Source: Kiritimatiellia bacterium
Lineage (GTDB): Bacteria; Verrucomicrobiota; Kiritimatiellia; RFP12; JAAYLN01
Direction of reading: 5' to 3'
Length of the DNA stretch: 48,636 nt
Assembly (NCBI GenBank): GCA_017458965.1
Contig: JAFSZJ010000048.1
Coordinates: forward strand, 1 to 48,636
The position numbers were made by a program, and so were the translations under genes. Under the pieces are notes generated by a model. It saw nothing but the letters and a program-made list of their open reading frames with translations, was not told the DNA's origin and did no database searches. Positions 5,604-16,609 of the stretch are shown piece after piece (the first letter of the stretch is position 1; each line of letters begins with the position of its first letter).

Positions 5604-6107
5604 TTGAAGGGTGAAGGGTTGAAGGACCGTCTTTTCCTTTTGGTGACGTCCGGCTTCGGGCTTGGGCTTCTGCCAGGCGCCCCGGGCACATTCGGCGCCG
5701 TGGTCGGCCTCATCTGGCACCTTGCCGCATGGGCCGCCGGTTTCGGGGCGACGGCGATCCGCTTGTGGTGCCTCGCCGGCGTGATCCTTTTCCTGGTTCT
5801 TCACTACGCGCTGACGCCATGGGCGCAGAGATACTGGAACGAAAGCGACCCGAAGCACTACATCATAGACGAGATCCCCGGCTACCTGATGGTGCCCGTC
5901 CTGTCGCTGCCGGCGGTCCGGATAGAGCACATACTCCTTGGCTTCGTCATCGAACGCATCTGCGATATCATCAAGCTGCCGGTTGCGCGCTACTTCGACC
6001 GGAAGGTCCACAACGCCACAGGCGTCGTGATGGACGACATCATCGCCGGCATCTACGCGGCTGTCATTCTTTCGCTGGCAATTCGGTTCATACCGCCGCT
6101 TTTTTGA
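5604..6107 (+). CDS. pgpA: phosphatidylglycerophosphatase A
   Basis: 167 aa with PgpA motifs GFGLGLLPGAPGTFGAVVG, IIDEIPGY, DIIKLPVAR and DDIIAGIYAAV. TTG start (5604 or 5619), 5 nt after the ATPase stop. Confidence 0.85.
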   Translation: MKGEGLKDRLFLLVTSGFGLGLLPGAPGTFGAVVGLIWHLAAWAAGFGATAIRLWCLAGVILFLVLHYALTPWAQRYWNESDPKHYIIDEIPGYLMVPVLSLPAVRIEHILLGFVIERICDIIKLPVARYFDRKVHNATGVVMDDIIAGIYAAVILSLAIRFIPPLF

Positions 6108-9036
6108 CGGCGGCATCCTCTCCGAACTCGACGCCGCCCTCCTCGCCGACGCGGCGCTGCTCCGTTATCCAGCGGCATAACGCCACCTCAAGCAGGATGA
6201 GCGCAAGAAGCGGCACCGCGAAGCGGCGCCAAAGTTCGCGCCCGACGGCGCCACCGCCAAGTGCGCGCTGCATGGAGTCCTTTTCGTCCGCGACGGCGAA
6301 GTCGATGAAGCGCGACACATAGGCGACATCATCCTCGCCAAGAGCGTCCATGCGGCTTTCCCCGCCATCAGTGGCGACCGCGAACGATATGCGGGCGAAG
6401 CCGTTAGACAGCGGCCCTAGCGTAGCCAGGTCCGGGGCGAGCAGGGACGGGACAAGCGCCGTGTACACGCCGGGAGTCATGCGATGGCGGATGTCGAGGG
6501 ACAGCGCGTCCGCGGTGCGGCGCAGCGTGGCGTCAACGGGGGCCGCGCTGTCAGGGGCCGTCACGGATGCGGTGTATGTCTCCGACCAGTCCTTCTGCGT
6601 GTTCCTCACTGGCGAGAGGTACTTCCTGGGGATCGACTGATCGCCGATGCCATTGCCGTTCCAGCGCAGATCGATGTGCGAATCCCTGCTGTTGCGTCCT
6701 GAGTATGTGACCACGAAGTCATGCCGCCGCCCTTCCGCGAGATCTATCGACAGGCCTGATCGCCGCAGTCCGAAATGGCGCTTGTCGTCGGCGAAGGCTA
6801 TCGTCGCATTGCCGCCGGCGCGGGCATATATGTTGTATGTGCCTGTCTTCGGAACCATGAGCGACCCGCTCCATTCCACCGTCACCGGCGCATCGGACGG
6901 GAGGGCCTTGTCGATCGGGTTCTTTTGCCAGCCGAAGGTTATCGGGCCATCGACCGATATGCGTATGACACCGCCATCCGACGCCGAACGATATACGCCG
7001 CGCAGTCCGCCGTTCTCGTGCGTGGAATCCTCGATCGGGCTTTCCGAGAGGACTATGGAAAGCCCCTGCGAAGGCTGGACATTGAGTCCTGGCACCACAG
7101 GACGGGCTATGTGGCCGACCAGCGCGTGCGCAAGCGGCAAGAAACTCTGGCGCGAGATGAAGTTCCCCGAAGATGGGTCAAGACCTGCTGCGAACTGGAC
7201 TATGCGGCCACGCCCCGCCTTCCGCTCCGCCAGAAGCGCCGATCCGTCGAACAGGCGCGCCCCTATTTCGGATGTGACGCCTTCCTGCACGGCGGTTTTC
7301 CAGATACGCTCGAAGATGGTTCCTGCGAGGTCGCCCTTTTCAGCCATCGCGGCCAGTGAGGGATGGGTAAGCGTCCTTGGGTCAAGAGGCGTCCCAGTCG
7401 TCTGCATCGGCGAATCGCCAAGCAACATCAGCGGCATCACAGGGGCACCGTCATCATCGGTCCAGCCGTTGTAGAAGTCAGCGGATGACGCCGACGAGTT
7501 CACCACCATGAGTCCGCCGCCACGCTCCACGTAGTAGATTAGGCGCGAGGCGACATCCGGCGAGAGGCGCGGGACGTCTGCGAGGATAATGGCGCTGTAA
7601 GGCGACAGGTTCGTCATAGCGGACATCTCCTGAGCAAGCGCAAGGCGTGGACGGAAAAAGGTCCTCATGCGTGGCGCCGCCGCCACCGCGCCATTCTGCT
7701 TGGCAGCCGCTCCGGCGGCAGGCGCCAGGGCTTCCCTGTCGGCCAACGTGACCTCGCTAGGGGCGAGCGCCAGCGCGATGTAGGCACCTGCGCGCCCAGA
7801 CATCCGCCGCGACCGCGCACCCTCGACCACTAGTACGTCGAGAGCCGACCTGACCGCTGCGACGCGTACGAGCGCATCGTCGGCCGGAAGATCGTCGTCG
7901 ATATCCAGATAGGCCCGGACCTCATGCGTGCCAGGCTTTGAAAAACGGTGGTTGAACTGGATGACGCGGCTTTCGCCCGGCTGGAGCTGGCCTATGCCTG
8001 ACGATGTCAGGACGCGCCCCTCCGTCGCCAGCGAGAGCGACGCGGCCGATGCGGCCTCGTCCCCGTTGTTAGCCACGGTGACGTCGATTCTGACCTCTCT
8101 GTCAGTACCTATCACGTCGCGGGAGAAGGACATGGAGGAGACGGTGAGATTTCGGAGGCTTCCGGGAGCCGGGAGCCGTCGCAGCACGATGCGGGGTTGG
8201 CGAGGGAGAACGGCCAGTACATCCTTGGCGCATTCCCATGTGCCGTCCTCTCCTATGTCCCATCCGGTCTTCTGTCCGTCGCCAATGACAAGAATCTCCT
8301 TGTTCCCGCTAGTCCCCTGCATGAGGGAAGTCGTAGCCTCGGCAAGCGCATCCGGCATGTCCAACGTCCCCTGGAGCGGAACCGCCTCGTCCAGAAGGCG
8401 GAAGAGAAGGCGCCTGTCCGTGGTCGGCGCCGGCGTGATGGCGTGCGACACGGACCCTCCGAGGACGATGGTGAACGCCGTGTTGCGCCGCGATGCCTCA
8501 ATGTATTCCGAGGCGATCTTCCTGGCGGCGTCGAAATTGCGTGATCCGTCGTTCCGCAGCGTCATAGAGGACGAGGCGTCGATGATGATCGCGACGTCTT
8601 TTGCCCCGTCACGGCGCGATCTCGAGAAGTGAAGGCCCCATTCCGCCATGACGCACGCCGTCGCGAAGACGGCCAAGGCGCCTCCCGCTATCCATAGGCG
8701 CCGTCTTGCCGCATGATTGGACCAGAGGGCGGCGGACGCCCCGAGTATGGCGACTGCGCCGACCGCGGCCACGGCGATGACCAACCATGCGCCGCCCGAT
8801 GTCGCGAAAGGCCTCGCGAATGCGAACCCCGCCAATGCCACGATCAGGCATCGCGTCAGCATCAGGAGAATCTCTTCGACCAGCACGCGTCGGCGCCTCT
8901 CCGCCAGCGATGCGACGAGAAACATCATCGCGCCCCAGTCACGTCGTCTCGACTTGCGCCTGTTGAGAAGGTGCAGCAGCAATGGGACCGACACCCCGGC
9001 AAGCCCCAGAAGCATCCATGGATTTAGAAAAAGCAT
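6088..9036 (-). CDS. BatA-domain / von Willebrand A / PA14 multidomain membrane protein
   Basis: Start reassigned to ATG 9036 because MLFLNPWMLLGLAGVSVPLLLHLLNRR is the BatA N-terminal double-TM motif. vWA MIDAS DVAIIIDASSSM. PA14-like block GLRGVY...VEWSGSLMVPKTGTYNIYARAGG...IDLRWNG. C-terminal TM helix. The 3' end overlaps the pgpA 3' end by 20 nt (convergent). Confidence 0.85.
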   Translation of the reverse strand: MLFLNPWMLLGLAGVSVPLLLHLLNRRKSRRRDWGAMMFLVASLAERRRRVLVEEILLMLTRCLIVALAGFAFARPFATSGGAWLVIAVAAVGAVAILGASAALWSNHAARRRLWIAGGALAVFATACVMAEWGLHFSRSRRDGAKDVAIIIDASSSMTLRNDGSRNFDAARKIASEYIEASRRNTAFTIVLGGSVSHAITPAPTTDRRLLFRLLDEAVPLQGTLDMPDALAEATTSLMQGTSGNKEILVIGDGQKTGWDIGEDGTWECAKDVLAVLPRQPRIVLRRLPAPGSLRNLTVSSMSFSRDVIGTDREVRIDVTVANNGDEAASAASLSLATEGRVLTSSGIGQLQPGESRVIQFNHRFSKPGTHEVRAYLDIDDDLPADDALVRVAAVRSALDVLVVEGARSRRMSGRAGAYIALALAPSEVTLADREALAPAAGAAAKQNGAVAAAPRMRTFFRPRLALAQEMSAMTNLSPYSAIILADVPRLSPDVASRLIYYVERGGGLMVVNSSASSADFYNGWTDDDGAPVMPLMLLGDSPMQTTGTPLDPRTLTHPSLAAMAEKGDLAGTIFERIWKTAVQEGVTSEIGARLFDGSALLAERKAGRGRIVQFAAGLDPSSGNFISRQSFLPLAHALVGHIARPVVPGLNVQPSQGLSIVLSESPIEDSTHENGGLRGVYRSASDGGVIRISVDGPITFGWQKNPIDKALPSDAPVTVEWSGSLMVPKTGTYNIYARAGGNATIAFADDKRHFGLRRSGLSIDLAEGRRHDFVVTYSGRNSRDSHIDLRWNGNGIGDQSIPRKYLSPVRNTQKDWSETYTASVTAPDSAAPVDATLRRTADALSLDIRHRMTPGVYTALVPSLLAPDLATLGPLSNGFARISFAVATDGGESRMDALGEDDVAYVSRFIDFAVADEKDSMQRALGGGAVGRELWRRFAVPLLALILLEVALCRWITEQRRVGEEGGVEFGEDAAVKKAAV

Positions 9037-9107
9037 CGTATAGGAAAAAGCATAACCCATGCCATGCCAGATGAAAACCCTCGCCGCGCCATATACACCC
9101 GGCGTTG

Positions 9108-9116
9108 TGGTACAAT
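9108..9116 (+). promoter_or_regulatory. candidate extended -10 promoter (TGgTACAAT) for the EPS operon
   Basis: TACAAT at 9111-9116 is preceded by TG at 9108-9109. Only 10 nt separate it from ATG 9127 and no SD is present, implying a leaderless or near-leaderless transcript. Confidence 0.4.
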
Positions 9117-9126
9117 TCACTGAACA

Positions 9127-10989
9127 ATGGTTGACAATGGGCATAGCACCACGCCGCGGCGACGAATGTCGGCGGACATTTCGCCGTGGGCCGTCGTCGC
9201 GTTGGCGATTGACGCCACCTTGCTTGCATCAGCGATGATTGCGGCCTATGCGCTTCGCTTCAACTTCGCCATACCGACGAACCATGTGCATCGTCTTGCC
9301 CTCATATTGCCCGCCTCGGTCCTGATTGAGCTTGCGTCGCTTTGGATATGCGGATGCCGGCGCGTAGTATGGCGCTACTTCTCCATTGCCGACGTGCCTC
9401 GTTTCACCATCGCAACCGCCATGTCGCTTGCGGCGTTCCTCCTGATGCGCATCCCGGGCAGGCCTTCGATACCATATCCCCCGATAAGCGTGGCATTCAT
9501 CAACGCCGTGCTGTCGCTCGCCCTTCTCGTAGCCGTTCGCGTCCTGCGCCGCGCCGTCACCGAGAAGCCGGCAGGGGCTGCCCTTCACTCCAAACGGGTC
9601 GTCATCGTCGGCGCGGGGGAAGCCGGGAACTCGCTCCTCTGGGCCTTGCGACATGACAGGTCCTCCGATCGCGAGGTGGTCGGCTTCCTCGAGGACTCAC
9701 CCAGCCGAGCAGGGGCACGGATCCAGGGCGTCGACGTCCTTGGGCCGGTCGCCGACGCGGAGGGGATTTTCGCCCGCGTGCGGCCCGACGAGGTGATAGT
9801 CACTACGCCGCACCTCGCACGCGATCTTGTCCAGCGCCTTTTCGAGCTTTCGGCCAAGGCCGGCGCAAGACTTCTGTTCGCCCCCGACTACACACGCATA
9901 CTCGACGGCATCGCCCATCCAGGCCGCATGCGCGAGGCGGAGATATCCGACATCCTCCGGCGCCCCGAGACAACCCTCAGCGGCGAGGCGGAGAAAATGG
10001 CGTTGCTGTCCGGCAGGCGGGTGATGGTGACGGGCGCAGGCGGATCGATCGGAAGCGAGATCGCCCGTCAGGTCCTTGCGACCGGCCCCGCATCGCTTAT
10101 CCTCGTCGAGCGGTGCGAAAACGCCCTCTTCAACGTCTGCCGGGCCATAGGGGCCGATTCGCAGGGCGGCAAGGTCGTGCCTTGCGTGGCATCCATAACG
10201 GACGAGACCCGGATGCGGCACATCCTCTCCGCCCATCGCCCGGAGATCGTCATCCATGCGGCCGCCCACAAGCATGTCCCGATGATGGAGGAGAATGTCT
10301 GCGAGGCGATATCCAACAATGTCCTGGGGACCGCCCTGCTTTGCCGGCTATCGGAGGAGGCCGGCGTCAAGCGCTTCGTCCTGCTCTCCACCGACAAGGC
10401 CGTCAGACCGTCGTCCGTGATGGGCGCTACCAAGCGGATGTGCGAGTTCACCATCGCGTCACGTTCCAGCGCAACGGTTTTCTGCGCGGTCCGCTTCGGC
10501 AACGTGCTCGGCGCTTCGGGTTCTGTCGTTCCGATATTCCGCGAGCAGATCGCGGCCGGAGGTCCAGTAACCGTCACGCATCCTGACATGACGCGCTACT
10601 TCATGACGATCCAGGAAGCGGTCCATCTCACCCTTGAGGCGGCCTCGTACGCCAAGGGCGGCGAGGTCTTCATCCTCGACATGGGCGAGCCTGTCCGCAT
10701 CGTGAATCTCGCGGAGGACATGATACGCCTTTCGGGGCATGTCCCTGGCGCCGACATCGCCATCGCCTTCTCTGGTGTCCGCAAAGGCGAGAAGATGTCC
10801 GAGGAGTTGTCTCTGGCGAGCGAGAACGTCTCCCCGACCCGCCACCCGCAGATATCCTGCGGACGCCTTGCGTCCCTTGACGCTGGGAAGCTCGCCGGCC
10901 ATCTGGAGACACTCGCCTCGACTGCCGCCGCCGGCGATGACGACGCCGCACGCTCGCTTCTAATGCGTATCGTCAAGGAGGACGCATAG
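9127..10989 (+). CDS. membrane-bound nucleotide-sugar 4,6-dehydratase/epimerase (CapD/PglF/WbpM family)
   Basis: 620 aa with 4 N-terminal TM helices, Rossmann motifs VVIVGAGEAGN and VMVTGAGGSIGSE, and catalytic region STDKAVRPSSVMGATKR. An alternative in-frame ATG lies at 9166. Confidence 0.9.
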   Translation: MVDNGHSTTPRRRMSADISPWAVVALAIDATLLASAMIAAYALRFNFAIPTNHVHRLALILPASVLIELASLWICGCRRVVWRYFSIADVPRFTIATAMSLAAFLLMRIPGRPSIPYPPISVAFINAVLSLALLVAVRVLRRAVTEKPAGAALHSKRVVIVGAGEAGNSLLWALRHDRSSDREVVGFLEDSPSRAGARIQGVDVLGPVADAEGIFARVRPDEVIVTTPHLARDLVQRLFELSAKAGARLLFAPDYTRILDGIAHPGRMREAEISDILRRPETTLSGEAEKMALLSGRRVMVTGAGGSIGSEIARQVLATGPASLILVERCENALFNVCRAIGADSQGGKVVPCVASITDETRMRHILSAHRPEIVIHAAAHKHVPMMEENVCEAISNNVLGTALLCRLSEEAGVKRFVLLSTDKAVRPSSVMGATKRMCEFTIASRSSATVFCAVRFGNVLGASGSVVPIFREQIAAGGPVTVTHPDMTRYFMTIQEAVHLTLEAASYAKGGEVFILDMGEPVRIVNLAEDMIRLSGHVPGADIAIAFSGVRKGEKMSEELSLASENVSPTRHPQISCGRLASLDAGKLAGHLETLASTAAAGDDDAARSLLMRIVKEDA

Positions 10990-10992
10990 GCC

Positions 10993-12699
10993 ATGGCCGC
11001 GACCACGGACAGCAGGTTCGGCATGACCAGGGCTGGCTGGATTCGGGTCGCGCAGATCGCGGTTTTCGCCATCTCCTTCGCCATCCTCCTGCATCTTTCG
11101 CGCGAGGTCCTGTCATGGATGGCCTACACCTTCCGCGAGCCGCGCGAGGACATGGCCCACGGCTTTCTTATACCGTTCTTCTCGCTTTGGCTCCTACTGC
11201 GACGGCGCAGGGAACTTGCCGCCTCCGTGGGGAAGCCCTCCATCATCGGGATGCTTTGCGTGGCGGTGGGACTCATCCTCTTCTGGACGGGTGTGCGCGG
11301 CGACCAGATCCGCGTGACGCATCTGGCCTCGATATGGACTCTTTGGAGCCTCTCATACGCCATATTCGGGCGTGCCACAGCCCGCCTAGCCGCATTCCCC
11401 TGCGTGTATCTTCTTTTCACGGTCCCGCTCTCGTTCCTGGATCTCTTCACGGTGAAGCTGCGCTTCGTCGCCTCCGTGGCCGCATCATCGTTGCTCAACG
11501 GCGTTGGCATCCCGGTCGAGCGCGTCGGGACAGGTCTTCACTGCCTATCCGGCGAGGGATTCAACCTGGACATCGCGGATCCCTGCAGCGGACTTCGCTC
11601 CATATTCGCCATAACGGCGCTCGCCGCCGCCTATGCCTATGTCACGCAACGCACGCTGCTCCGGAAATGGGCGCTTTTCCTTTGCTCCGTACCTATAGCC
11701 GTGATTGGCAACATCGCGCGCATTTTCTCGATAGCCTTCGTCGCGCGCTTCTTCGGGCAACAGGCGGCCACTGGCTTCTACCATGATTACTCAGGCTATG
11801 TGATCTTCCTCTTCGGCATTCTTCTCCTCGAACGCGCCGGCACACTCATAAACCGCCTCGGCACAAAATCCACTCCCCCACTCCCCACCTCCGCCACCCC
11901 TTCCCTCCCCCACTCCTCCACTCCTCCACTCCCCAACTCCTCCACTCCTCATCTCCTCCACTCCCTTCTCCTCGCCGTCCCGGTGATCATGCTTCTCGCT
12001 GCGGACAACGCCATACGGAAGATGCCGCCGCTTAAACCTGAGGGTATTGGCTTCATCGCCGCGAGCCTGCCTCCGCTTCCGGACTACCGTCCCAGATATC
12101 CTTGGTATTGCCAGAACGAGCAATGCGGCGCAATAGTGGAGTCGGATTCGCCGATGGAAGGCCCACGGACATGCCCTAAATGCGGAACGGCCATGGACGC
12201 GGTGTCCGTGGCCGAACGAACCGTGCTTCCGCCGGACACCTCGTTCCGCAAGTGCAACTACTATGACGCCATGGGGGATGTCTTCCGCGTAACCGTCGTC
12301 ATCAACGGCAATTCCCGCCAGAGCATCCATCGTCCGGAGATATGCCTGCCGGCACAGGGCTTCTCGATGGAGAACAGCCGCGTGGAGCATTTCCAGCTCG
12401 CGGACGGAGGATCGCTGCCGATGCATTGCGTCGATCTGAGGCGACGCGACTCCACTTCCGCCAACCGCATGGGACAGGGGTATTTCTTCGCAAGCGCGCG
12501 CAACCGGGTCGGCACCCATTACGCGCGCATGTTCCTCAACATCCGGGACCGGGCGCTGCTTGGCGTGGTGACGCGCTGGGCAATGGTCACCGTCTTCTGC
12601 GAGGAGCCTCTTGCATCGCCCCCGGAGCGCCGTGCGGCGACAGAACGCTTCGTCTCCCAGCTTGAACAGGCCCTTTTCCACCAGGAGGAAACACGATGA
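10993..12699 (+). CDS. exosortase fused to an EpsI-family domain, with an inserted Cys4 ribbon
   Basis: 568 aa. Polytopic core with catalytic Cys in DPCSGLRS, Arg in GNIARI and His in FYHDYSG. This is followed by an S/T/P linker, an extra TM helix, YCQNEQCG-X-CPKCG (12109-12183), and the EpsI block SIHRPEICLPAQGF. There is a 3-nt gap after the upstream stop and an ATGA overlap with the next gene. Confidence 0.85.
   Translation: MAATTDSRFGMTRAGWIRVAQIAVFAISFAILLHLSREVLSWMAYTFREPREDMAHGFLIPFFSLWLLLRRRRELAASVGKPSIIGMLCVAVGLILFWTGVRGDQIRVTHLASIWTLWSLSYAIFGRATARLAAFPCVYLLFTVPLSFLDLFTVKLRFVASVAASSLLNGVGIPVERVGTGLHCLSGEGFNLDIADPCSGLRSIFAITALAAAYAYVTQRTLLRKWALFLCSVPIAVIGNIARIFSIAFVARFFGQQAATGFYHDYSGYVIFLFGILLLERAGTLINRLGTKSTPPLPTSATPSLPHSSTPPLPNSSTPHLLHSLLLAVPVIMLLAADNAIRKMPPLKPEGIGFIAASLPPLPDYRPRYPWYCQNEQCGAIVESDSPMEGPRTCPKCGTAMDAVSVAERTVLPPDTSFRKCNYYDAMGDVFRVTVVINGNSRQSIHRPEICLPAQGFSMENSRVEHFQLADGGSLPMHCVDLRRRDSTSANRMGQGYFFASARNRVGTHYARMFLNIRDRALLGVVTRWAMVTVFCEEPLASPPERRAATERFVSQLEQALFHQEETR
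11869..11973 (+). repeat. G-depleted C/T-rich low-complexity tract (one G in about 105 nt) with reiterated cactcc(t/c)cc units
   Basis: Read directly from the sequence. It encodes the linker STPPLPTSATPSLPHSSTPPLPNSSTPHLLHS between the exosortase and EpsI modules. Confidence 0.8.
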
Positions 12700-14618
12700 G
12701 CTTTTCCTCGCCATGGTTGCTATTGCTTCTTTTCGCCACGTCTGCGCTCGCGGTCCTGATCCTCGTGCCGCCCCTTCGCGCCATGCTCGTGAAACTGGGC
12801 ATTGTCGACCAGCCAAGCGCACGGCGGATAAACAGGAAGCCTATTCCGCGCGGTGGCGGTCTTTCGATATTCGTGGCGTTCCTCGCGGCCGCAGCCGCAT
12901 GGCATGCGGCGACCGGGCTCTACTCCCCGTGGCTCTCGGCGGCGCAGTATGGCATGTTCGTAAAGGCGGCGTGCGTGATCGTGGTCGTGGGAGTGCTCGA
13001 TGACGCGCTTGATCTTAAGCCTCTACTGAAGCTCGCTGGGCAGATAGTCGCCGCACTCATGCTCTACGAGGCCGGCATGTCTATAGAGAACGCCATCTGG
13101 CTCGACGTCCCGCCGATTGTTGACCTTGGGCTGACGCTCGCCTGGTACATCATCATCATAAACGCCTTCAACCTGATCGACGGTATGGACGGCCTCGCAT
13201 CCGGTCTCGCCCTAATTGGCTCGTTCGGCCTGTCGCTTTGCCTTGTGGGGCGCGGTCTTGCAGCCAAGGCTGTCCCGCTCGCCATTCTCGGCGGGGCGTG
13301 TCTTGGCTTTCTCAGGTACAACTTCAACCCCGCCTCGGTCTTCCTTGGAGACTGCGGCTCGATGTTCATTGGCCTGGTTATGGCCACAGTCCCGCTGCTC
13401 ACCGGCGGCAAGACGGCCTTCGTCGCATCCATCCTCTCGCCACTCCTGATCATGGGGGTCCCGCTATTCGACACCGTGCTCGCCATCTGGCGGCGCTCCA
13501 TGCGCGCCGCGATCGCGAACGAGGAAGGAAAGTACGACATCTCTCGCGTGATACGCCCCGACATGGACCATCTCCACCACCGGTTCCTGTCCACCGGCCT
13601 AACGCAGAGACGCGCCGCATGGGCCCTGTACTTCGTCAGCCTCGTAATGGTCGCGGTGGCCGTCGGTGTGTCGCTTTTCTCCGATCGCACCATGGGAATC
13701 GTGCTTGTCGGCGCCCTCATCGTGGTGGCTATCATGGTGCGCCATCTCTCCCGCGTGGAGCTTTGGGATACCGGCCAGGCGTTCCTCTCCATGTACCGGA
13801 CGCCGCGCTTCGCGAAGATGCTCATGCCTATGTACCTTGCGCTCGATCTCGTGTTCATGGTCGCCGCATGGATATTCAGCTTCAGGTTGGCGTTTCCCTC
13901 CGGCGGCGCTATCCGCCTCGTATCCGTGTTCCCGCTTTTCCTTATGTTCACGATGGCGGCGATGCTGGCCACCGGCATATACCGGCGGGTGTGGGGCAAG
14001 GGCGATGCCCGTGATTTCGCCGTTCTCGCGATTTCCCTTTTCGCCGGGTGGCTTGCGGCCGTGTCGTTCGCGATCATCCTCGACATGCGCTATCCCGGAT
14101 TCAACAGGCAAGCCCTGATCTTCCTGTTCCTATCCTCCGTCCCTATCATGACGATGCGCGGCATCCGCATCCTCGTGGCGCACTTCCTCGAGGCGTCGGA
14201 AACGATCAGGCTGTCATCGTCACCGACCGCGATCCGCTATGTCGCATACGGGGCCGGAGACAACTTCGCGGCATACGACGCCGCGATGCGCGGCACGATC
14301 ATCGGTCGGCGCGACGGCTTCGTCGCGGCCCTCATCGACGACGATCCAATGCTGCGAGGACGCCTCATGCACGGCCATCGCGTCGTCGGCTCGCTTGACG
14401 ACATCGACCATGTGGTCGCATCATCTGGCGCCACCTGCCTTCTCATCGTCTGCGCCCTCCGCCCGGAGAACCGCGAGCGGGCAATGGCCGCCGCCGCCCG
14501 TCTCGGACTATCCGTTCGCGAATGGCGGTGCTACATCGAGGATGTCCTCTTGCCCGGACAATCAGCCGAAAAATCGAAAACGCCTGCCCAAAGGCGAAGG
14601 AGTCCAACCCGAAAATGA
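12696..14618 (+). CDS. polyprenyl-phosphate HexNAc-1-phosphate transferase (WecA/MraY GT4 family) fused to an extra TM + Rossmann-like C-terminal module
   Basis: 640 aa. The first ~330 aa carry IPRGGGLSIF, VLDDALDLKP, NAFNLIDGMDGLASG, FLGDCGSMFIG and DHLHHR. These are followed by several further TM helices and IRYVAYGAGDNF...VVGSLDDIDHVV...LLIVCAL, which resembles the N-terminal module of WbpM/CapD-type proteins. Confidence 0.85.
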   Translation: MSFSSPWLLLLLFATSALAVLILVPPLRAMLVKLGIVDQPSARRINRKPIPRGGGLSIFVAFLAAAAAWHAATGLYSPWLSAAQYGMFVKAACVIVVVGVLDDALDLKPLLKLAGQIVAALMLYEAGMSIENAIWLDVPPIVDLGLTLAWYIIIINAFNLIDGMDGLASGLALIGSFGLSLCLVGRGLAAKAVPLAILGGACLGFLRYNFNPASVFLGDCGSMFIGLVMATVPLLTGGKTAFVASILSPLLIMGVPLFDTVLAIWRRSMRAAIANEEGKYDISRVIRPDMDHLHHRFLSTGLTQRRAAWALYFVSLVMVAVAVGVSLFSDRTMGIVLVGALIVVAIMVRHLSRVELWDTGQAFLSMYRTPRFAKMLMPMYLALDLVFMVAAWIFSFRLAFPSGGAIRLVSVFPLFLMFTMAAMLATGIYRRVWGKGDARDFAVLAISLFAGWLAAVSFAIILDMRYPGFNRQALIFLFLSSVPIMTMRGIRILVAHFLEASETIRLSSSPTAIRYVAYGAGDNFAAYDAAMRGTIIGRRDGFVAALIDDDPMLRGRLMHGHRVVGSLDDIDHVVASSGATCLLIVCALRPENRERAMAAAARLGLSVREWRCYIEDVLLPGQSAEKSKTPAQRRRSPTRK

Positions 14619-16609
14619 ACCACACCTTAGCAGTTTCCGCACTTCTTGCTACGGCAATGGCGTCATACGCCATTGCCGATGCCGGGATATCCATTGCCCC
14701 TATGTTCTCCACCGGCGCCGTCATCCAGCGCGATGTCGCCGCCCCGGTGTGGGGCTGGGCCGCGCCGGACTCCGCCGTCGAGGTGTGCCTGTCTAGGGAC
14801 GGTGCCGACAAGCCCATCGAAACCGTCAAGGCAACGGCCGACGCCTCCGGGCGCTGGCAGGTCTCCCTCCCCGCCCAACCCGCCGGCGGTCCATACCGGC
14901 TCGACGTGTCCGACCAGTCATCCTCGCTCTGCGCCACGAACATCCTCTTCGGCGATGTCTGGCTCTGCTCCGGCCAGTCCAATATGGATATGAACTACGG
15001 CTGGGGGCTCACCCGCGGCAAAGGCGACATCGAGACGAATTCCTATCCGACCATGCGTCTCTTCGATGACGCCAACGCCATATCGTCAAAGCCCCTCGAC
15101 GCCTTGACGCGGACTGCGAAGTGGACCGCAAGCGACTTCGCCCATTCCCGCTCCTTCTCGGCGTGCGGGTGGTTCTTCGGTCAGGCGCTCGTAAAGGCCA
15201 TGCCGGACATCCCCATCGGCCTGATCGAGGCGAGCTGGAGCGGAACACCGATCAAGACATGGCTTTCCGGCGAGGCGTACTGCGCCGCCGATCCAGAGTG
15301 CAAGAGGCAATACGACACCACGTACTCCGCGATACGAAATTACGAGGAGGAAGGCGGCAAGGAGGACTATGAAAAGCGCTTCGCTTTCTGGACCGCCGAA
15401 AGCAACGCCCGTGGCGACATACAGGCTGAAGGCCCTGACTACGACGATTCGGAATGGAAGACAGTCTCCGTCCCCGTCACCTTCGAGAAGCAGCTTGGCA
15501 AGGATTTCGACGGATGCGTCTGGTACCGCCGCTCGTTCGACCTGACGGCGGAACAGGCCTCGGCGACCAACGCCACGCTCCACCTCGGCGCCATAGATGA
15601 CAAGGACCTCACATACGTCAACGGCGTTTTCGTCGGGTCCAACACCGTCTGGAACGCGAAGCGCGAGTACAAGCTCCCAGCAAGAGTTCTCCGCGAGGGG
15701 CGCAATGTTATTGCCGTCCGCGCGATCGATTTCGGCGGTGGCGGCGGCTTCACGGACAAGGCTGACGAAATACTCATTGCGGCACCAGGCTGGAGCGTCC
15801 CGCTCGCTGGCGAGTGGCGCTCCACCGGATTCGCCTTCGACCCGCGTCCGGTCTCTGGCGCCATTTCGGCATGGACGCCATCCGCATGCTACAACGCCAT
15901 GATCCACCCGCTCTTCCCGATGGCGCTCAAAGGCGCGATCTGGTACCAGGGTTGCTCAGATGTAGGCAACGAGTTTATATACGACAAGGTCTTCCGCGCC
16001 ATGGCCACGGACTGGCGCTCGCACTTCACCCATCCCGACGGGATGCCCATCTATCTCGTCCAACTTGCCGCGTTCCTGCAGACGCATGATGAGCCGGTCG
16101 AGTCGGCGTGGGCCGCCATGCGCTGGACTCAGATGAGGCTCGGTCTGTCGCTGCCAAAGTCCGGGACGGCCGTCGCCATCGACATAGGCCACCATACCGA
16201 CATCCACCCGAAGGACAAGAAGACCGTCGGCGAACGCCTCGCGCGTTTGGCCCTTGTGCGCACTTACGGCGTGAAGGATCTCGTCGAGGCCGGCCCGACG
16301 CCGCGGAACGCGACCTTCGCGGACGGCAAAATAGTCGTCCACTTCAACAACGCCACCGGTCTCAAGACCTCGGACGGCGGGTCTCTCAAGGGCTTCCAGC
16401 TCAAGGTCAAGGACGCCGACTACGCCTGGTGCGATGCCGCCATCGAGGGCGAGACCGTCGTCATCGCCGTCCCTGAAGGCGCCGAGCCCGAAATTGTCCG
16501 CTACGCATGGGACGACTATCCCGTGTGCAACCTCGTCAACGGGGACGACCTCCCGTCCGGTCCCTTCTCCATGAGCCTGCTTGATTTCGATTTCCAGCTG
16601 CGCAAATAA
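14615..16609 (+). CDS. secreted SASA-family carbohydrate O-acetylesterase (sialate O-acetylesterase-like)
   Basis: Start reassigned to ATG 14615 (ATGA overlap with the upstream stop). Signal peptide MNHTLAVSALLATAMASYAIADA. Motifs LFGDVWLCSGQSNMD and IWYQGCSD, plus a galactose-binding-like insert. The substrate cannot be inferred. Confidence 0.85.
   Translation: MNHTLAVSALLATAMASYAIADAGISIAPMFSTGAVIQRDVAAPVWGWAAPDSAVEVCLSRDGADKPIETVKATADASGRWQVSLPAQPAGGPYRLDVSDQSSSLCATNILFGDVWLCSGQSNMDMNYGWGLTRGKGDIETNSYPTMRLFDDANAISSKPLDALTRTAKWTASDFAHSRSFSACGWFFGQALVKAMPDIPIGLIEASWSGTPIKTWLSGEAYCAADPECKRQYDTTYSAIRNYEEEGGKEDYEKRFAFWTAESNARGDIQAEGPDYDDSEWKTVSVPVTFEKQLGKDFDGCVWYRRSFDLTAEQASATNATLHLGAIDDKDLTYVNGVFVGSNTVWNAKREYKLPARVLREGRNVIAVRAIDFGGGGGFTDKADEILIAAPGWSVPLAGEWRSTGFAFDPRPVSGAISAWTPSACYNAMIHPLFPMALKGAIWYQGCSDVGNEFIYDKVFRAMATDWRSHFTHPDGMPIYLVQLAAFLQTHDEPVESAWAAMRWTQMRLGLSLPKSGTAVAIDIGHHTDIHPKDKKTVGERLARLALVRTYGVKDLVEAGPTPRNATFADGKIVVHFNNATGLKTSDGGSLKGFQLKVKDADYAWCDAAIEGETVVIAVPEGAEPEIVRYAWDDYPVCNLVNGDDLPSGPFSMSLLDFDFQLRK

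Follow-up and report, generated by a model that had tools for sequence, protein, structure and literature searches.

In the 48,636-nucleotide contig of a Kiritimatiellia bacterium analyzed here (JAFSZJ010000048.1 of assembly GCA_017458965.1, referred to below as the window), an open reading frame at 10993-12699 encodes a 568-residue fusion of an exosortase with EpsI, whose EpsI part is interrupted by a ribbon carrying four cysteines. We propose, with a probability of about 0.6, that the protein is a PEP-CTERM sorting exosortase fused to EpsI, in which a periplasmic metal-binding ribbon acts as a structural clasp. Because the insert is conserved across nearly the whole class and yet missing from curated exosortase and EpsI models, we regard the protein as a hitherto undescribed form of a sorting system already known and not as a new kind of machine. 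All features described below lie on the forward strand.

The N-terminal part of the protein comprises an exosortase catalytic core, predicted to have eight TM helices (aa 30-279; 11080-11829), with Cys198 in DPCSGLRS (11584-11586), Arg243 in GNIARI (11719-11721), and His264 in YHDYSG (11782-11784), a triad that is invariant in a 90-sequence alignment of the family. Generic exosortase profiles were matched above their cut-offs (PF09721, 167.3 bits against 25.7, E = 5e-49; TIGR02602, 146.4 bits against 105.55), as was the signature model TIGR04178 (73.9 bits against 23). Membership in a described exosortase subtype was rejected, since every Xrt, Crt, and Art model of NCBIfam scored below its cut-off and only the generic exosortase model passed. 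The closest cases were XrtD (TIGR04152, 168.3 bits against 400, matched in two stretches), XrtA (TIGR03109, 150.1 against 208), XrtW (NF038142, 140.7 against 425, covering only model positions 4-311 of 494), and XrtV (126 against 313). This was the classification by subtype models that a sequence-only reading of the window had recommended, and its proposal of a distinct exosortase subtype stands in the form of an uncatalogued exosortase/EpsI type that is recognized by TIGR02602 only. As the NCBIfam subtype models all miss the family, genes of this kind are annotated only as generic exosortases. No second exosortase was found in the source genome, which is 63% complete. Some relatives encode other exosortase paralogs, distantly XrtQ/XrtT-like ORFs of 486-580 aa without the ribbon, which are too distant to be usable as an outgroup.

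Downstream of the core, the layout proposed in the same reading, an S/T/P linker followed by an extra TM helix and an EpsI domain, was recovered in full from the ORF and its motifs. The low-complexity linker (aa 290-319; 11860-11949) is built of ~8-aa units, one more of which (SSTPPLPT) is present in a 98%-identical homolog, and falls below pLDDT 50 at aa 300-308 of an AF2 model of the full protein that is otherwise well defined (pLDDT 89.2, pTM 0.86). It is followed by a ninth hydrophobic TM helix (TM9, aa 320-342; 11950-12018) and, beyond the ribbon, by the EpsI core (aa 423-561; 12259-12675), to which both EpsI profile matches are limited (PF11984, DUF3485, 33.4 bits against a cut-off of 26.1, E = 4.7e-8; TIGR02914, 29.5 bits against 42.8). 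The EpsI signature H446-R-P-E449-I-C451 (12328-12345) lies within aa 444-457, SIHRPEICLPAQGF, where H446, E449, C451, P453, and G456 are invariant in the 90-sequence alignment; the HRPExC loop is modeled with lower pLDDT (74-82). The TM9 anchor, the HxPxxC signature, and the association with an exosortase, by fusion here and by adjacency in split forms, agree with EpsI. The function of EpsI is not known (Haft 2006, PMC1569441). Foldseek searches of the PDB with full-length and domain models returned no structure at E < 1e-3; the weak matches were to Mog1p/PsbP-like folds (3lyd, PsbP chains, and the EagT6/SciW chaperones, which bind TM helices) and are a hint only.

The ribbon (aa ~371-401; 12103-12195) reads directly as YCQNEQCG-x15-CPKCG, that is, C373-x4-C378-x15-C394-x2-C397, with C373 encoded at 12109-12111 and C397 at 12181-12183. 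It forms part of an insertion of 36-40 residues that separates LPxxVGxWxG, the first strand of EpsI, from a conserved ExxxLPxDT segment. The latter belongs to a post-ribbon stretch S-x2-E-x3-LPxDT (12196-12240) that is common to ribbon-less EpsI and in which E408, L412, P413, D415, and T416 are invariant. The Cys4 element at 12109-12183 had been flagged as an insertion unusual for EpsI, and alignment bears this out: MAFFT opens a clean gap at the ribbon in ribbon-less EpsI homologs, and the element is absent from the curated exosortase/EpsI models. With ribbon-bearing proteins, the EpsI_fam, EpsI_B, EpsI_V, and XrtD models align only past the ribbon, and with ribbon-less homologs the matches are unbroken (31-480 of 486 positions for XrtD, 65-491 of 494 for XrtW, and 3-171 of 174 for EpsI_fam). 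Since the XrtD model runs without a break through a ribbon-less fused homolog, it holds no ribbon columns, and profile collinearity of this kind indicates that XrtD and XrtW probably both lack the ribbon. A literature search found no paper that combines an exosortase with a zinc ribbon, zinc finger, or rubredoxin, and the sole paper that it found for exosortase together with Kiritimatiell* was unrelated.

Conservation of the ribbon is high. In the 90-sequence family alignment the four cysteines are invariant and the CPxCG knuckle nearly so; Cys4 is present in 119 of the 120 best homologs and in 82 of 83 readable genome loci, and in its strict form in 335 of 349 EpsI relatives overall. A chance or lineage-specific cysteine pattern was rejected on these counts. 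The earlier claim of novelty had been made to depend on two points, and on both the outcome is favorable: no described Xrt subtype fits the protein, and the cysteines are conserved in orthologs. The exceptions are informative. One lineage (G109) has kept the insertion and lost all four cysteines, which are thus not indispensable for the fold, and two independent replacements of a cysteine ligand by histidine, just two cases among ~340 sequences, were found as CQNPAH...CPEC (G051) and CQSPQC...CMNPAH (P0189).

An exosortase with ribbon-EpsI is encoded by 133 of 151 genomes of Kiritimatiellia and is almost universal in the class. The two parts are fused in the order to which the window belongs and are encoded by two adjacent genes elsewhere in the class. 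Judged from these sequences, the ribbon belongs to a class-wide EpsI module that exists mostly in the unfused, two-gene form, and it is not peculiar to the fusion. Homologs occur in at least 564 species genomes, and ribbon-EpsI amounts to 704 cluster representatives; the annotated names of the stand-alone ribbon-EpsI clusters go no further than "hypothetical protein."

The fusion gene (xrt) is embedded in a cluster of four. The first gene (capD, 9127-10989) encodes a CapD/WbpM-type membrane-anchored UDP-HexNAc 4,6-dehydratase (Pfam Polysacc_synt_2, 2e-107). Downstream of xrt lie wecA (12696-14618), which encodes a 640-residue polyprenyl-phosphate HexNAc-1-P transferase of the WecA/MraY family (PF00953, 4e-32; TIGR02380, 5.7e-31, below cut-off) with a C-terminal TM/Rossmann-like extension, and a gene for a secreted SASA-type carbohydrate esterase with a GH2-N-like sugar-binding domain (14615-16609; PF03629 and PF02837), whose start is the internal Met32 of a long ORF, followed by a signal peptide. 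The ORF ends reproduce the intergenic spacings reported earlier, +3 between the capD stop (10989) and the xrt ATG (10993) and -4, with ATGA coupling, both between the xrt stop (12699) and the wecA ATG (12696) and between the wecA stop (14618) and the esterase ATG (14615). All three downstream starts (xrt, wecA, and esterase) are preceded by AGGAGG-type Shine-Dalgarno sites, and a scan of the cluster for promoters and terminators gave signals no better than shuffles. Among 83 related loci, the xrt homolog directly follows capD in ~40 and is immediately followed by wecA (34-63% identity) in ~60; an esterase at the matching position is not conserved. An exosortase-EpsI fusion amid polysaccharide genes is, as such, already known (PMC1569441).

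The likely substrates are canonical. As had been noted from the letters, the window itself holds no PEP-CTERM protein, but a search of the source genome for C-terminal sorting signals, a check proposed at the time, found one classical PEP-CTERM protein (TIGR02595) on another contig (C1:18019-18552), and the notion that the genome lacks a substrate was rejected. Loose regular-expression and hydrophobic-tail scans of this 63%-complete genome yielded no second candidate. Substrate tails of the clade (n = 21) share the consensus PVPEPTTxALLALGLAAxGLKRKVA, and an altered sorting signal was likewise rejected, the tails being canonical PEP-CTERM. The claim of a distinct subtype with an altered recognition module therefore stood in its first half and not in its second: given a canonical signal, it is only partly supported, and EpsI as the recognition module is unproven. 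When presence of the exosortase was set against presence of TIGR02595 in a 2x2 table over the 151 Kiritimatiellia genomes, both were found in 124, the exosortase only in 9, PEP-CTERM only in 1, and neither in 17 (Fisher p = 4e-15). The 9 among 133 exosortase-positive genomes without a detectable PEP-CTERM protein include some that are >90% complete. Several genomes of the window's own family likewise have none, for instance G004 and G008, in which the triad and Cys4 are intact, and the enzyme may thus have a further substrate or role.

The linker is predicted to be cytoplasmic, and TM9 is predicted to carry the ribbon and EpsI into the periplasm, where the catalytic Cys also faces. A family-wide positive-inside pattern and the AF2 helices are consistent with an eight-TM core that is N-in/C-in and has the loops of Cys198 and His264 on the outside, so that one further TM helix would lead to the Cys-loop side (model in PMC1569441). 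In family-averaged charges, the flank before TM9 is basic and the flank after it net acidic. Split forms start with MKR and continue into a hydrophobic anchor, an N-terminal signal anchor equivalent to TM9; in 99 stand-alone ribbon-EpsI proteins the N-flank averages a net charge of +2.35 versus -0.47 for the C-flank and is the more positive in 91%, as in a classic N-in signal anchor. The charge statistics and the signal-anchored split forms thus support the periplasmic location assigned in the sequence-only reading, and they make it most improbable that the ribbon and EpsI are cytoplasmic and act there on a partner protein or on the substrates' basic tail, even though Cys4 zinc ribbons are common in the cytoplasm, zinc ribbons as a whole are overwhelmingly cytoplasmic, and R342, K343, and K347 lie just past TM9 in this one protein. 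The four cysteines of the ribbon probably coordinate a single metal ion in the manner of a zinc ribbon, with Zn2+ as the most likely metal. In the AF2 model they form two Cys-pair knuckles on two β-hairpins, and DSSP assigns strands at 366-373 and 381-384 around C373/C378 and a bridge at 393 and a strand at 400-402 around C394/C397, all at pLDDT 96-98. Zinc-ribbon profiles of Pfam match below their cut-offs (YdjO, 20.2 bits against 27; RUBY_RBDX, 19.1 against 26.5; Zn_ribbon_8, 16.6 against 34.4). Two structural disulfides that staple a β-hairpin, with no metal, would suit an extracytoplasmic location, where disulfides usually stabilize small inserts, and the joint loss of all four cysteines in G109 fits the loss of a paired system; to our knowledge, extracytoplasmic Cys4 zinc ribbons are uncommon. 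We nonetheless regard disulfides as unlikely. Neither DsbB nor VKOR is present in any of the 32 Kiritimatiellia genomes examined, with control genomes positive, and the homolog-bearing MAGs appear to come from gut, rumen, digester, and sediment and are taken as anaerobes. CxxC disulfides are strained and normally redox-active rather than structural. A single Cys-to-His change at ligand 2 or 4 would preserve a metal site and leave an unpaired cysteine in a disulfide system, and the CPxCG knuckle and the sub-threshold zinc-ribbon/rubredoxin-like matches again point to metal. It is the knuckle, the Cys-to-His swaps, the missing DsbB/VKOR, and the two-hairpin model together that favor a structural metal (zinc) site over disulfides. 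Both CxxxxC and CxxxxH are among the recognized zinc-ribbon knuckles (PMC3592412).

A different question is whether the ribbon does more than stiffen. It could be a docking or regulatory surface, possibly metal- or redox-dependent, for the PEP-CTERM substrate, for an acceptor glycan or glycolipid, or for the WecA-like partner. Its first knuckle strongly conserves polar residues (C-[QH]-N-[ED]-Q-C) beyond the needs of metal ligation, and the fused clade keeps xrt and wecA side by side. In one genome (G014), a tandem paralog without the catalytic Cys and His still retains the ribbon and the EpsI core, pointing to a binding role of the module that does not require catalysis. However, the loop between the knuckles is hypervariable in sequence and in length (13 to ~50 aa), ribbon-less EpsI homologs serve lineages that apparently use the same kind of PEP-CTERM system, and wecA is not adjacent in split-type genomes, and we consider a docking surface a doubtful, if credible, alternative to the clasp. 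A more elaborate scheme, which we rate as a long shot, would make ribbon-EpsI the acceptor- or partner-docking module of a Kiritimatiellia-specific, sorting-coupled glycoconjugation, with the acyl-enzyme resolved onto an undecaprenyl-phosphate-linked glycan started by WecA. In that scheme the CapD-type enzyme could supply a 4-keto (and, after transamination, 4-amino) 6-deoxy-HexNAc, the positioning or gating of the transfer would fall to the periplasmic Cys4 metal site, and PEP-CTERM proteins would end up covalently joined to a glycolipid or envelope polysaccharide. If true, it would also account for the retention of the enzyme where PEP-CTERM proteins are scarce or undetected in the genome.

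Under the preferred reading, that of a sorting exosortase with a ribbon clasp, the enzyme would cleave the VPEP...TM...KRK tails of small secreted proteins through an acyl-Cys198 intermediate, with the PEP-CTERM protein at C1:18019-18552 as a candidate substrate, and the sorted protein would then be handed to a periplasmic acceptor. The zinc ribbon would serve as the clasp, stiffening EpsI near the membrane in organisms without an enzymatic disulfide-forming pathway. The tight coupling of xrt to capD and wecA points to a glycan begun by the CapD-type dehydratase and the WecA-type transferase as the acceptor or as the destination matrix. The finding leaves the overall picture of PEP-CTERM sorting unchanged. 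Exosortases are widespread but have hardly been studied biochemically, and for the role of EpsI a handle is now at hand in natural variants with Cys-to-His swaps, with Cys4 lost, without the ribbon, fused or split, or with a catalytically dead paralog. The ribbon cleanly marks these sequences for the building of a new exosortase/EpsI subtype model, and the conserved capD-xrt-wecA trio makes the old question of the exosortase transfer target testable. If the metal assignment is true, the ribbon would be a rare case of Sec exporting a Cys4 metal site in bacteria without DsbB/VKOR.

Among known systems, the best subtype model is that of the VPLPA-CTERM-specific XrtD (TIGR04152, 3.3e-49), with which the protein shares a predicted eight-TM core with the Cys/Arg/His triad, an extra TM helix, and a C-terminal EpsI domain. 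Unlike XrtD, it scores far under the model's cut-off (168 of 400 bits) in a match split in two, it carries a ribbon for which the model has no columns, and the tails found here, by a PEP-CTERM search alone, read VPEP... and not VPLPA. XrtW (NF038142) is likewise a fused exosortase-EpsI, and its N-terminal 310 residues align (4.7e-41), but in its C-terminal half the model fits ribbon-less relatives and does not match the window's protein across the ribbon. The XrtA/EpsH system, as in epsH-epsI of Methylobacillus sp. 12S (PMC1569441; TIGR03109, TIGR02914), shares the PEP-CTERM signal (TIGR02595), the fusion or adjacency of EpsH and EpsI, a neighborhood of polysaccharide genes that includes an initiating sugar transferase, and the proposed periplasmic Cys-transpeptidase mechanism (PMC1569441). 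It differs in that the XrtA and EpsI_fam scores here are below cut-off (150/208 and 29.5/42.8), EpsI here has the 36-40-aa Cys4 insertion, and the linked transferase, which has a C-terminal extension, belongs to the WecA/MraY (GT4) type rather than to Bac_transf. Finally, the insertion resembles zinc-ribbon and rubredoxin-like domains (Zn_ribbon_8 PF09723, RUBY_RBDX PF21349, YdjO PF14169) in its hairpin-tip Cys pairs and CPxCG second knuckle, and its first knuckle has counterparts in the CxxxxC/CxxxxH variants known from zinc ribbons (PMC3592412). In contrast to those domains, it matches at only 13-20 bits, below the gathering thresholds, and is a predicted extracytoplasmic insert rather than a cytoplasmic module.

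In our judgment the Cys4-bearing exosortase/EpsI protein of this window is a genuine and conserved variant, so far undescribed, within a known system. Its gene, xrt (10993 to 12699, + strand), encodes a 568-aa fusion whose translation carries the catalytic motifs DPCSGLRS (Cys198), GNIARI (Arg243), and YHDYSG (His264), an S/T/P-rich linker (aa 290 to 319; window 11860 to 11949), a hydrophobic helix, TM9 (aa 320 to 342), the Cys4 element YCQNEQCG-x15-CPKCG (Cys373, Cys378, Cys394, and Cys397; nt 12109 to 12183), and the EpsI-type stretch SIHRPEICLPAQGF. The sequence-only reading had described this ORF, its motifs, linker, helix, Cys4 element, EpsI stretch, and gene spacing correctly in every detail. 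It had also proposed a distinct exosortase subtype, and scoring against the subtype HMMs agrees: the protein exceeds the cut-offs of the generic models TIGR02602 (146 bits; cut-off, 105.55) and PF09721 (167 bits; cut-off, 25.7) and misses that of every NCBIfam subtype (XrtD, 168/400; XrtA, 150/208; XrtW, 141/425; XrtV, 126/313; XrtB, 112/275). Its EpsI part passes Pfam DUF3485 (33.4 bits; cut-off, 26.1) and falls below TIGR02914 (29.5 bits; cut-off, 42.8), both aligning only to aa 423 to 561, 3' of the Cys4 element. Repeat units, each about 8 aa (24 nt) long, make up the linker, which overlaps a C/T-rich tract (11869 to 11973); in P0001, a homolog with 98% identity, nearly the sole difference is a single added SSTPPLPT unit, pointing to repeat copy-number polymorphism in this putatively cytoplasmic segment.

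Variation of the cysteines among orthologs would have counted against the sequence-only reading, and we found them conserved. A word-indexed search returned 499 homologs, and C-x4-C...C-x2-C stands in the same position in 119 of the best 120, down to 38% identity. In a 90-sequence alignment, Cys198, Arg243, His264, all four ribbon cysteines, the post-ribbon residues E408, L412, P413, D415, and T416, and the EpsI signature (H446, E449, C451, P453, G456) are invariant, and P395 and G398 of CPxCG nearly so. When one genome per species was scanned, a relative turned up in at least 564 genomes, the best 80 of which are metagenome-assembled genomes (MAGs) labeled mostly Kiritimatiellia or Kiritimatiellae, others Lentisphaerae/Lentisphaerales, Akkermansia, or Verrucomicrobia; four cysteines occur in 82 of 83 readable loci, with an inter-knuckle loop of 13 to about 50 residues. 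An exhaustive search that used only the C-terminal domain yielded 704 cluster representatives, 360 of them at E ≤ 1e-10. Among the top 150, stand-alone proteins about 250 aa in length predominate, and the Cys4 is present in 114 of 117 of these, about 30 residues past an N-terminal anchor. The two stand-alone proteins placed on contigs each lie directly 3' of, and overlap, a 314-aa exosortase gene, and neither partner attains an NCBIfam subtype cut-off.

In a sample of 151 genomes from the GTDB class of the window, 133 have the family. Within the window's order it is matched as one full-length ORF, with split forms in genomes G015 and G017; most other orders have two adjacent matches, an exosortase of about 320 aa and then an EpsI of about 250 aa, with scattered fused cases. 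The fusion is therefore a clade-level rearrangement, and the ribbon is a trait of the EpsI module class-wide. Almost all the genomes that lack the exosortase family fall in one taxonomic family, f12 (e.g., G023, G180, G188, G193, and G200), which has neither the exosortase/EpsI pair nor PEP-CTERM proteins, in what looks like a clean joint loss. Paralogs also occur. On contig C27 of genome G014 (L106), a tandem ORF starting at locus position 435, directly upstream of an intact homolog at 1760, has DITEPHIW for DVADPCSG (Cys) and FYEVSSG for FYHDYSG (His) with its ribbon (CQGGTC...CPAC) and HRPELC core intact, and looks like a pseudo-enzyme that keeps its EpsI module. A second, very different paralog in G011, G014, G016, and G020 (L107 to L110; 486 to 580 aa; VDAPCSG motif) is distantly XrtQ/XrtT-like, under all cut-offs, and ends in its own domain with RPTHRVH..DC and no Cys4.

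Charge distribution bears on where the ribbon lies. When charge is averaged over 90 sequences, clusters of K+R appear ahead of TM1, after TM2 (RRRR), and at 121 to 135, 218 to 225, and 281 to 300; acidic loops fall at 41 to 60, 181 to 200 (just before Cys198), and 251 to 266 (His264), and the flank after TM9 is net acidic. This pattern fits an 8-TM N-in/C-in core that would hold the catalytic residues outside and the linker in the cytoplasm. At the N-terminus of stand-alone ribbon-EpsI proteins, a short basic stretch precedes a hydrophobic helix, and among 99 such proteins the N-flank has a net charge of +2.35 and the C-flank of −0.47, with the N-flank more positive in 91%. Together these charges suggest that the ribbon and EpsI are periplasmic, supporting the orientation first proposed from topology and in agreement with the model that Haft et al. 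put forward in 2006 (PMC1569441).

We consider a structural zinc site the probable role of the four cysteines (a probability of roughly 0.6 to 0.65), on the strength of motif, model, variants, and redox context. The knuckles read CxxxxC and CPxCG, and PMC3592412 lists both CxxxxC and CxxxxH as zinc-ribbon knuckles; the 66-aa ribbon segment has sub-threshold matches only, all to rubredoxin-like or zinc-ribbon families. AF2 models (full-length pLDDT, 89.2, and pTM, 0.86; domain alone, 93.3 and 0.90) place both Cys pairs at β-hairpin turns with pLDDT of 96 to 98. Disulfides at the same positions appear unlikely: such hairpin pairing and the zinc-type motif speak against them, and single Cys-to-His swaps at ligand 2 in G051 (L136; CQNPAH...CPEC) and at ligand 4 in P0189 (CQSPQC...CMNPAH, within the CMNPAH knuckle) would keep a metal site and break a pair. 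DsbB and VKOR are both missing from 21 of 21 close relatives and 11 of 11 further class genomes, 32 in all, with control genomes positive; VKOR turns up only among ribbon-less genomes of other classes, in 4 of 15. Other departures are a CX8C second knuckle in P0258 and, in G109 (L137), a retained insertion with all four cysteines gone (THDRDN...DPETGE).

As for what such a zinc site would do, the AF2 models are rigid at the ribbon and, among ordered parts, least confident at the catalytic loop (aa 191 to 200; pLDDT 62) and the EpsI HRPExC loop (pLDDT 74 to 82); in our reading the ribbon may serve as a structural clasp at the end of EpsI nearest the membrane. A docking role is kept alive by conserved polar residues in knuckle 1 (Q/H-N-E/D-Q) and by the G014 tandem paralog, which lacks the catalytic Cys and His yet keeps ribbon and EpsI core. 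Foldseek gave no solved relative of EpsI; its best matches, with E near 0.03, are to Mog1p/PsbP-like folds, among them the TM-helix-binding Eag chaperones, a resemblance that may be a hint at best.

Searches of the window's own genome (63% complete, 122 contigs) found a single exosortase and, outside the window, one classical PEP-CTERM protein (contig C1:18019-18552; about 177 aa, with a signal peptide and C-terminus ...GGGDPVPEPTSVALLALGLAALGLKRKVA). Another 20 tails, taken from relatives, share the consensus PVPEPTTxALLALGLAAxGLKRKVA; the proteins that bear them are small (about 180 to 250 aa), secreted, and often clustered (groups of 2 to 4, e.g., G005:C142, G009:C137/C207, and G007:C146). 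The family as a whole (about 175 to 250 aa), in C1:18019-18552 and relatives' loci L084 to L103, has a (T/S)VxW motif after the signal peptide. TIGR02595 matches occur in 125 of the 151 class genomes, and the two traits coincide (both, 124; exosortase only, 9; PEP-CTERM only, 1; neither, 17; Fisher p = 4e-15). Such a phylogenetic profile is an argument for the ribbon family as cognate sortase for canonical PEP-CTERM proteins and not for a new signal. The proposal of a subtype with an altered recognition module is supported as to the subtype, the protein reaching no subtype cut-off, and is not supported as to a changed signal, the tails being canonical. Exosortase-positive genomes without a PEP-CTERM match number 9 of 133 class-wide. 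In the window's own family, too, several genomes (G004 and G008 among them) lack any match at a completeness of >90% and with triad and Cys4 intact. In genus g5 of that family (G004, G008, G010, and G011), exosortase-EpsI is kept with no PEP-CTERM match by TIGR02595 or a clade-specific profile, the intact triad and Cys4 being verified in G004 and G008.

The spacing first read for the EPS operon holds: capD stops at 10989 and the xrt ATG is at 10993, ATGA overlaps join xrt to wecA (12696 to 12699) and wecA to the esterase gene (14615 to 14618), and an AGGAGG-like site precedes each downstream start. These neighbors encode a CapD/WbpM-type dehydratase, a 640-aa WecA/MraY-family transferase, and a secreted SASA esterase. 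Among 83 loci, about 60 have a WecA-like gene immediately 3' of the xrt homolog and about 40 have capD upstream, with products 34 to 63% identical to the window's proteins; the esterase is not conserved at these 83 loci. On split-type contigs wecA is not adjacent to the pair, and one has a Bac_transf gene beside it. Exosortases among polysaccharide genes are a known rule (PMC1569441), and the capD-xrt-wecA trio is a clade feature that prompts a bold reading in which a glycan begun by these enzymes would be the sorting acceptor. The transferase (12696 to 14618) is extended at its C-terminus by about 280 aa, with TM helices and a Rossmann-like block, and this extension matches the EPS_sugtrans N-terminal region (TIGR03025 positions 2 to 222), as does the CapD-like N-terminal part; this long form is kept beside xrt in the same 60 or so loci. 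On the − strand, a divergent gene (6088 to 9144) for a 1018-aa BatA-N/vWA/CARDB/PA14 protein shares 18 nt at its 5' end with the capD start region, and a homolog lies near xrt in two rumen MAG loci (L048 and L059).

There is precedent for the exosortase-EpsI fusion, for its EPS context, and for PEP-CTERM sorting; neither the models of NCBIfam 20.0 and Pfam nor the searchable literature contain the Cys4 insertion or the clade marked by it. That the Cys4 is an insertion in EpsI, as had been proposed, was borne out by alignment with ribbon-less EpsI homologs from other classes (a phylum-level sample drawn with the EpsI_fam model). In MAFFT alignments the two groups are collinear apart from a clean gap of 36 to 40 residues, which falls precisely at the junction of the LPxxVGxWxG strand with the S-x2-E-x3-LPxDT segment. 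Ribbon-less proteins are matched in one stretch by XrtD (31 to 480 of 486) and XrtW (65 to 491 of 494) and unbroken by EpsI_fam (3 to 171 of 174, above cut-off) and EpsI type B (6 to 211 of 221); in ribbon-bearing proteins, XrtD, XrtW, and EpsI matches always begin past the ribbon. This indicates, at the level of profiles, that the curated XrtD, XrtW, and EpsI models lack ribbon columns. The described XrtD and XrtW, compared here as models, differ from the window protein, whose EpsI domain bears the Cys4 insertion.
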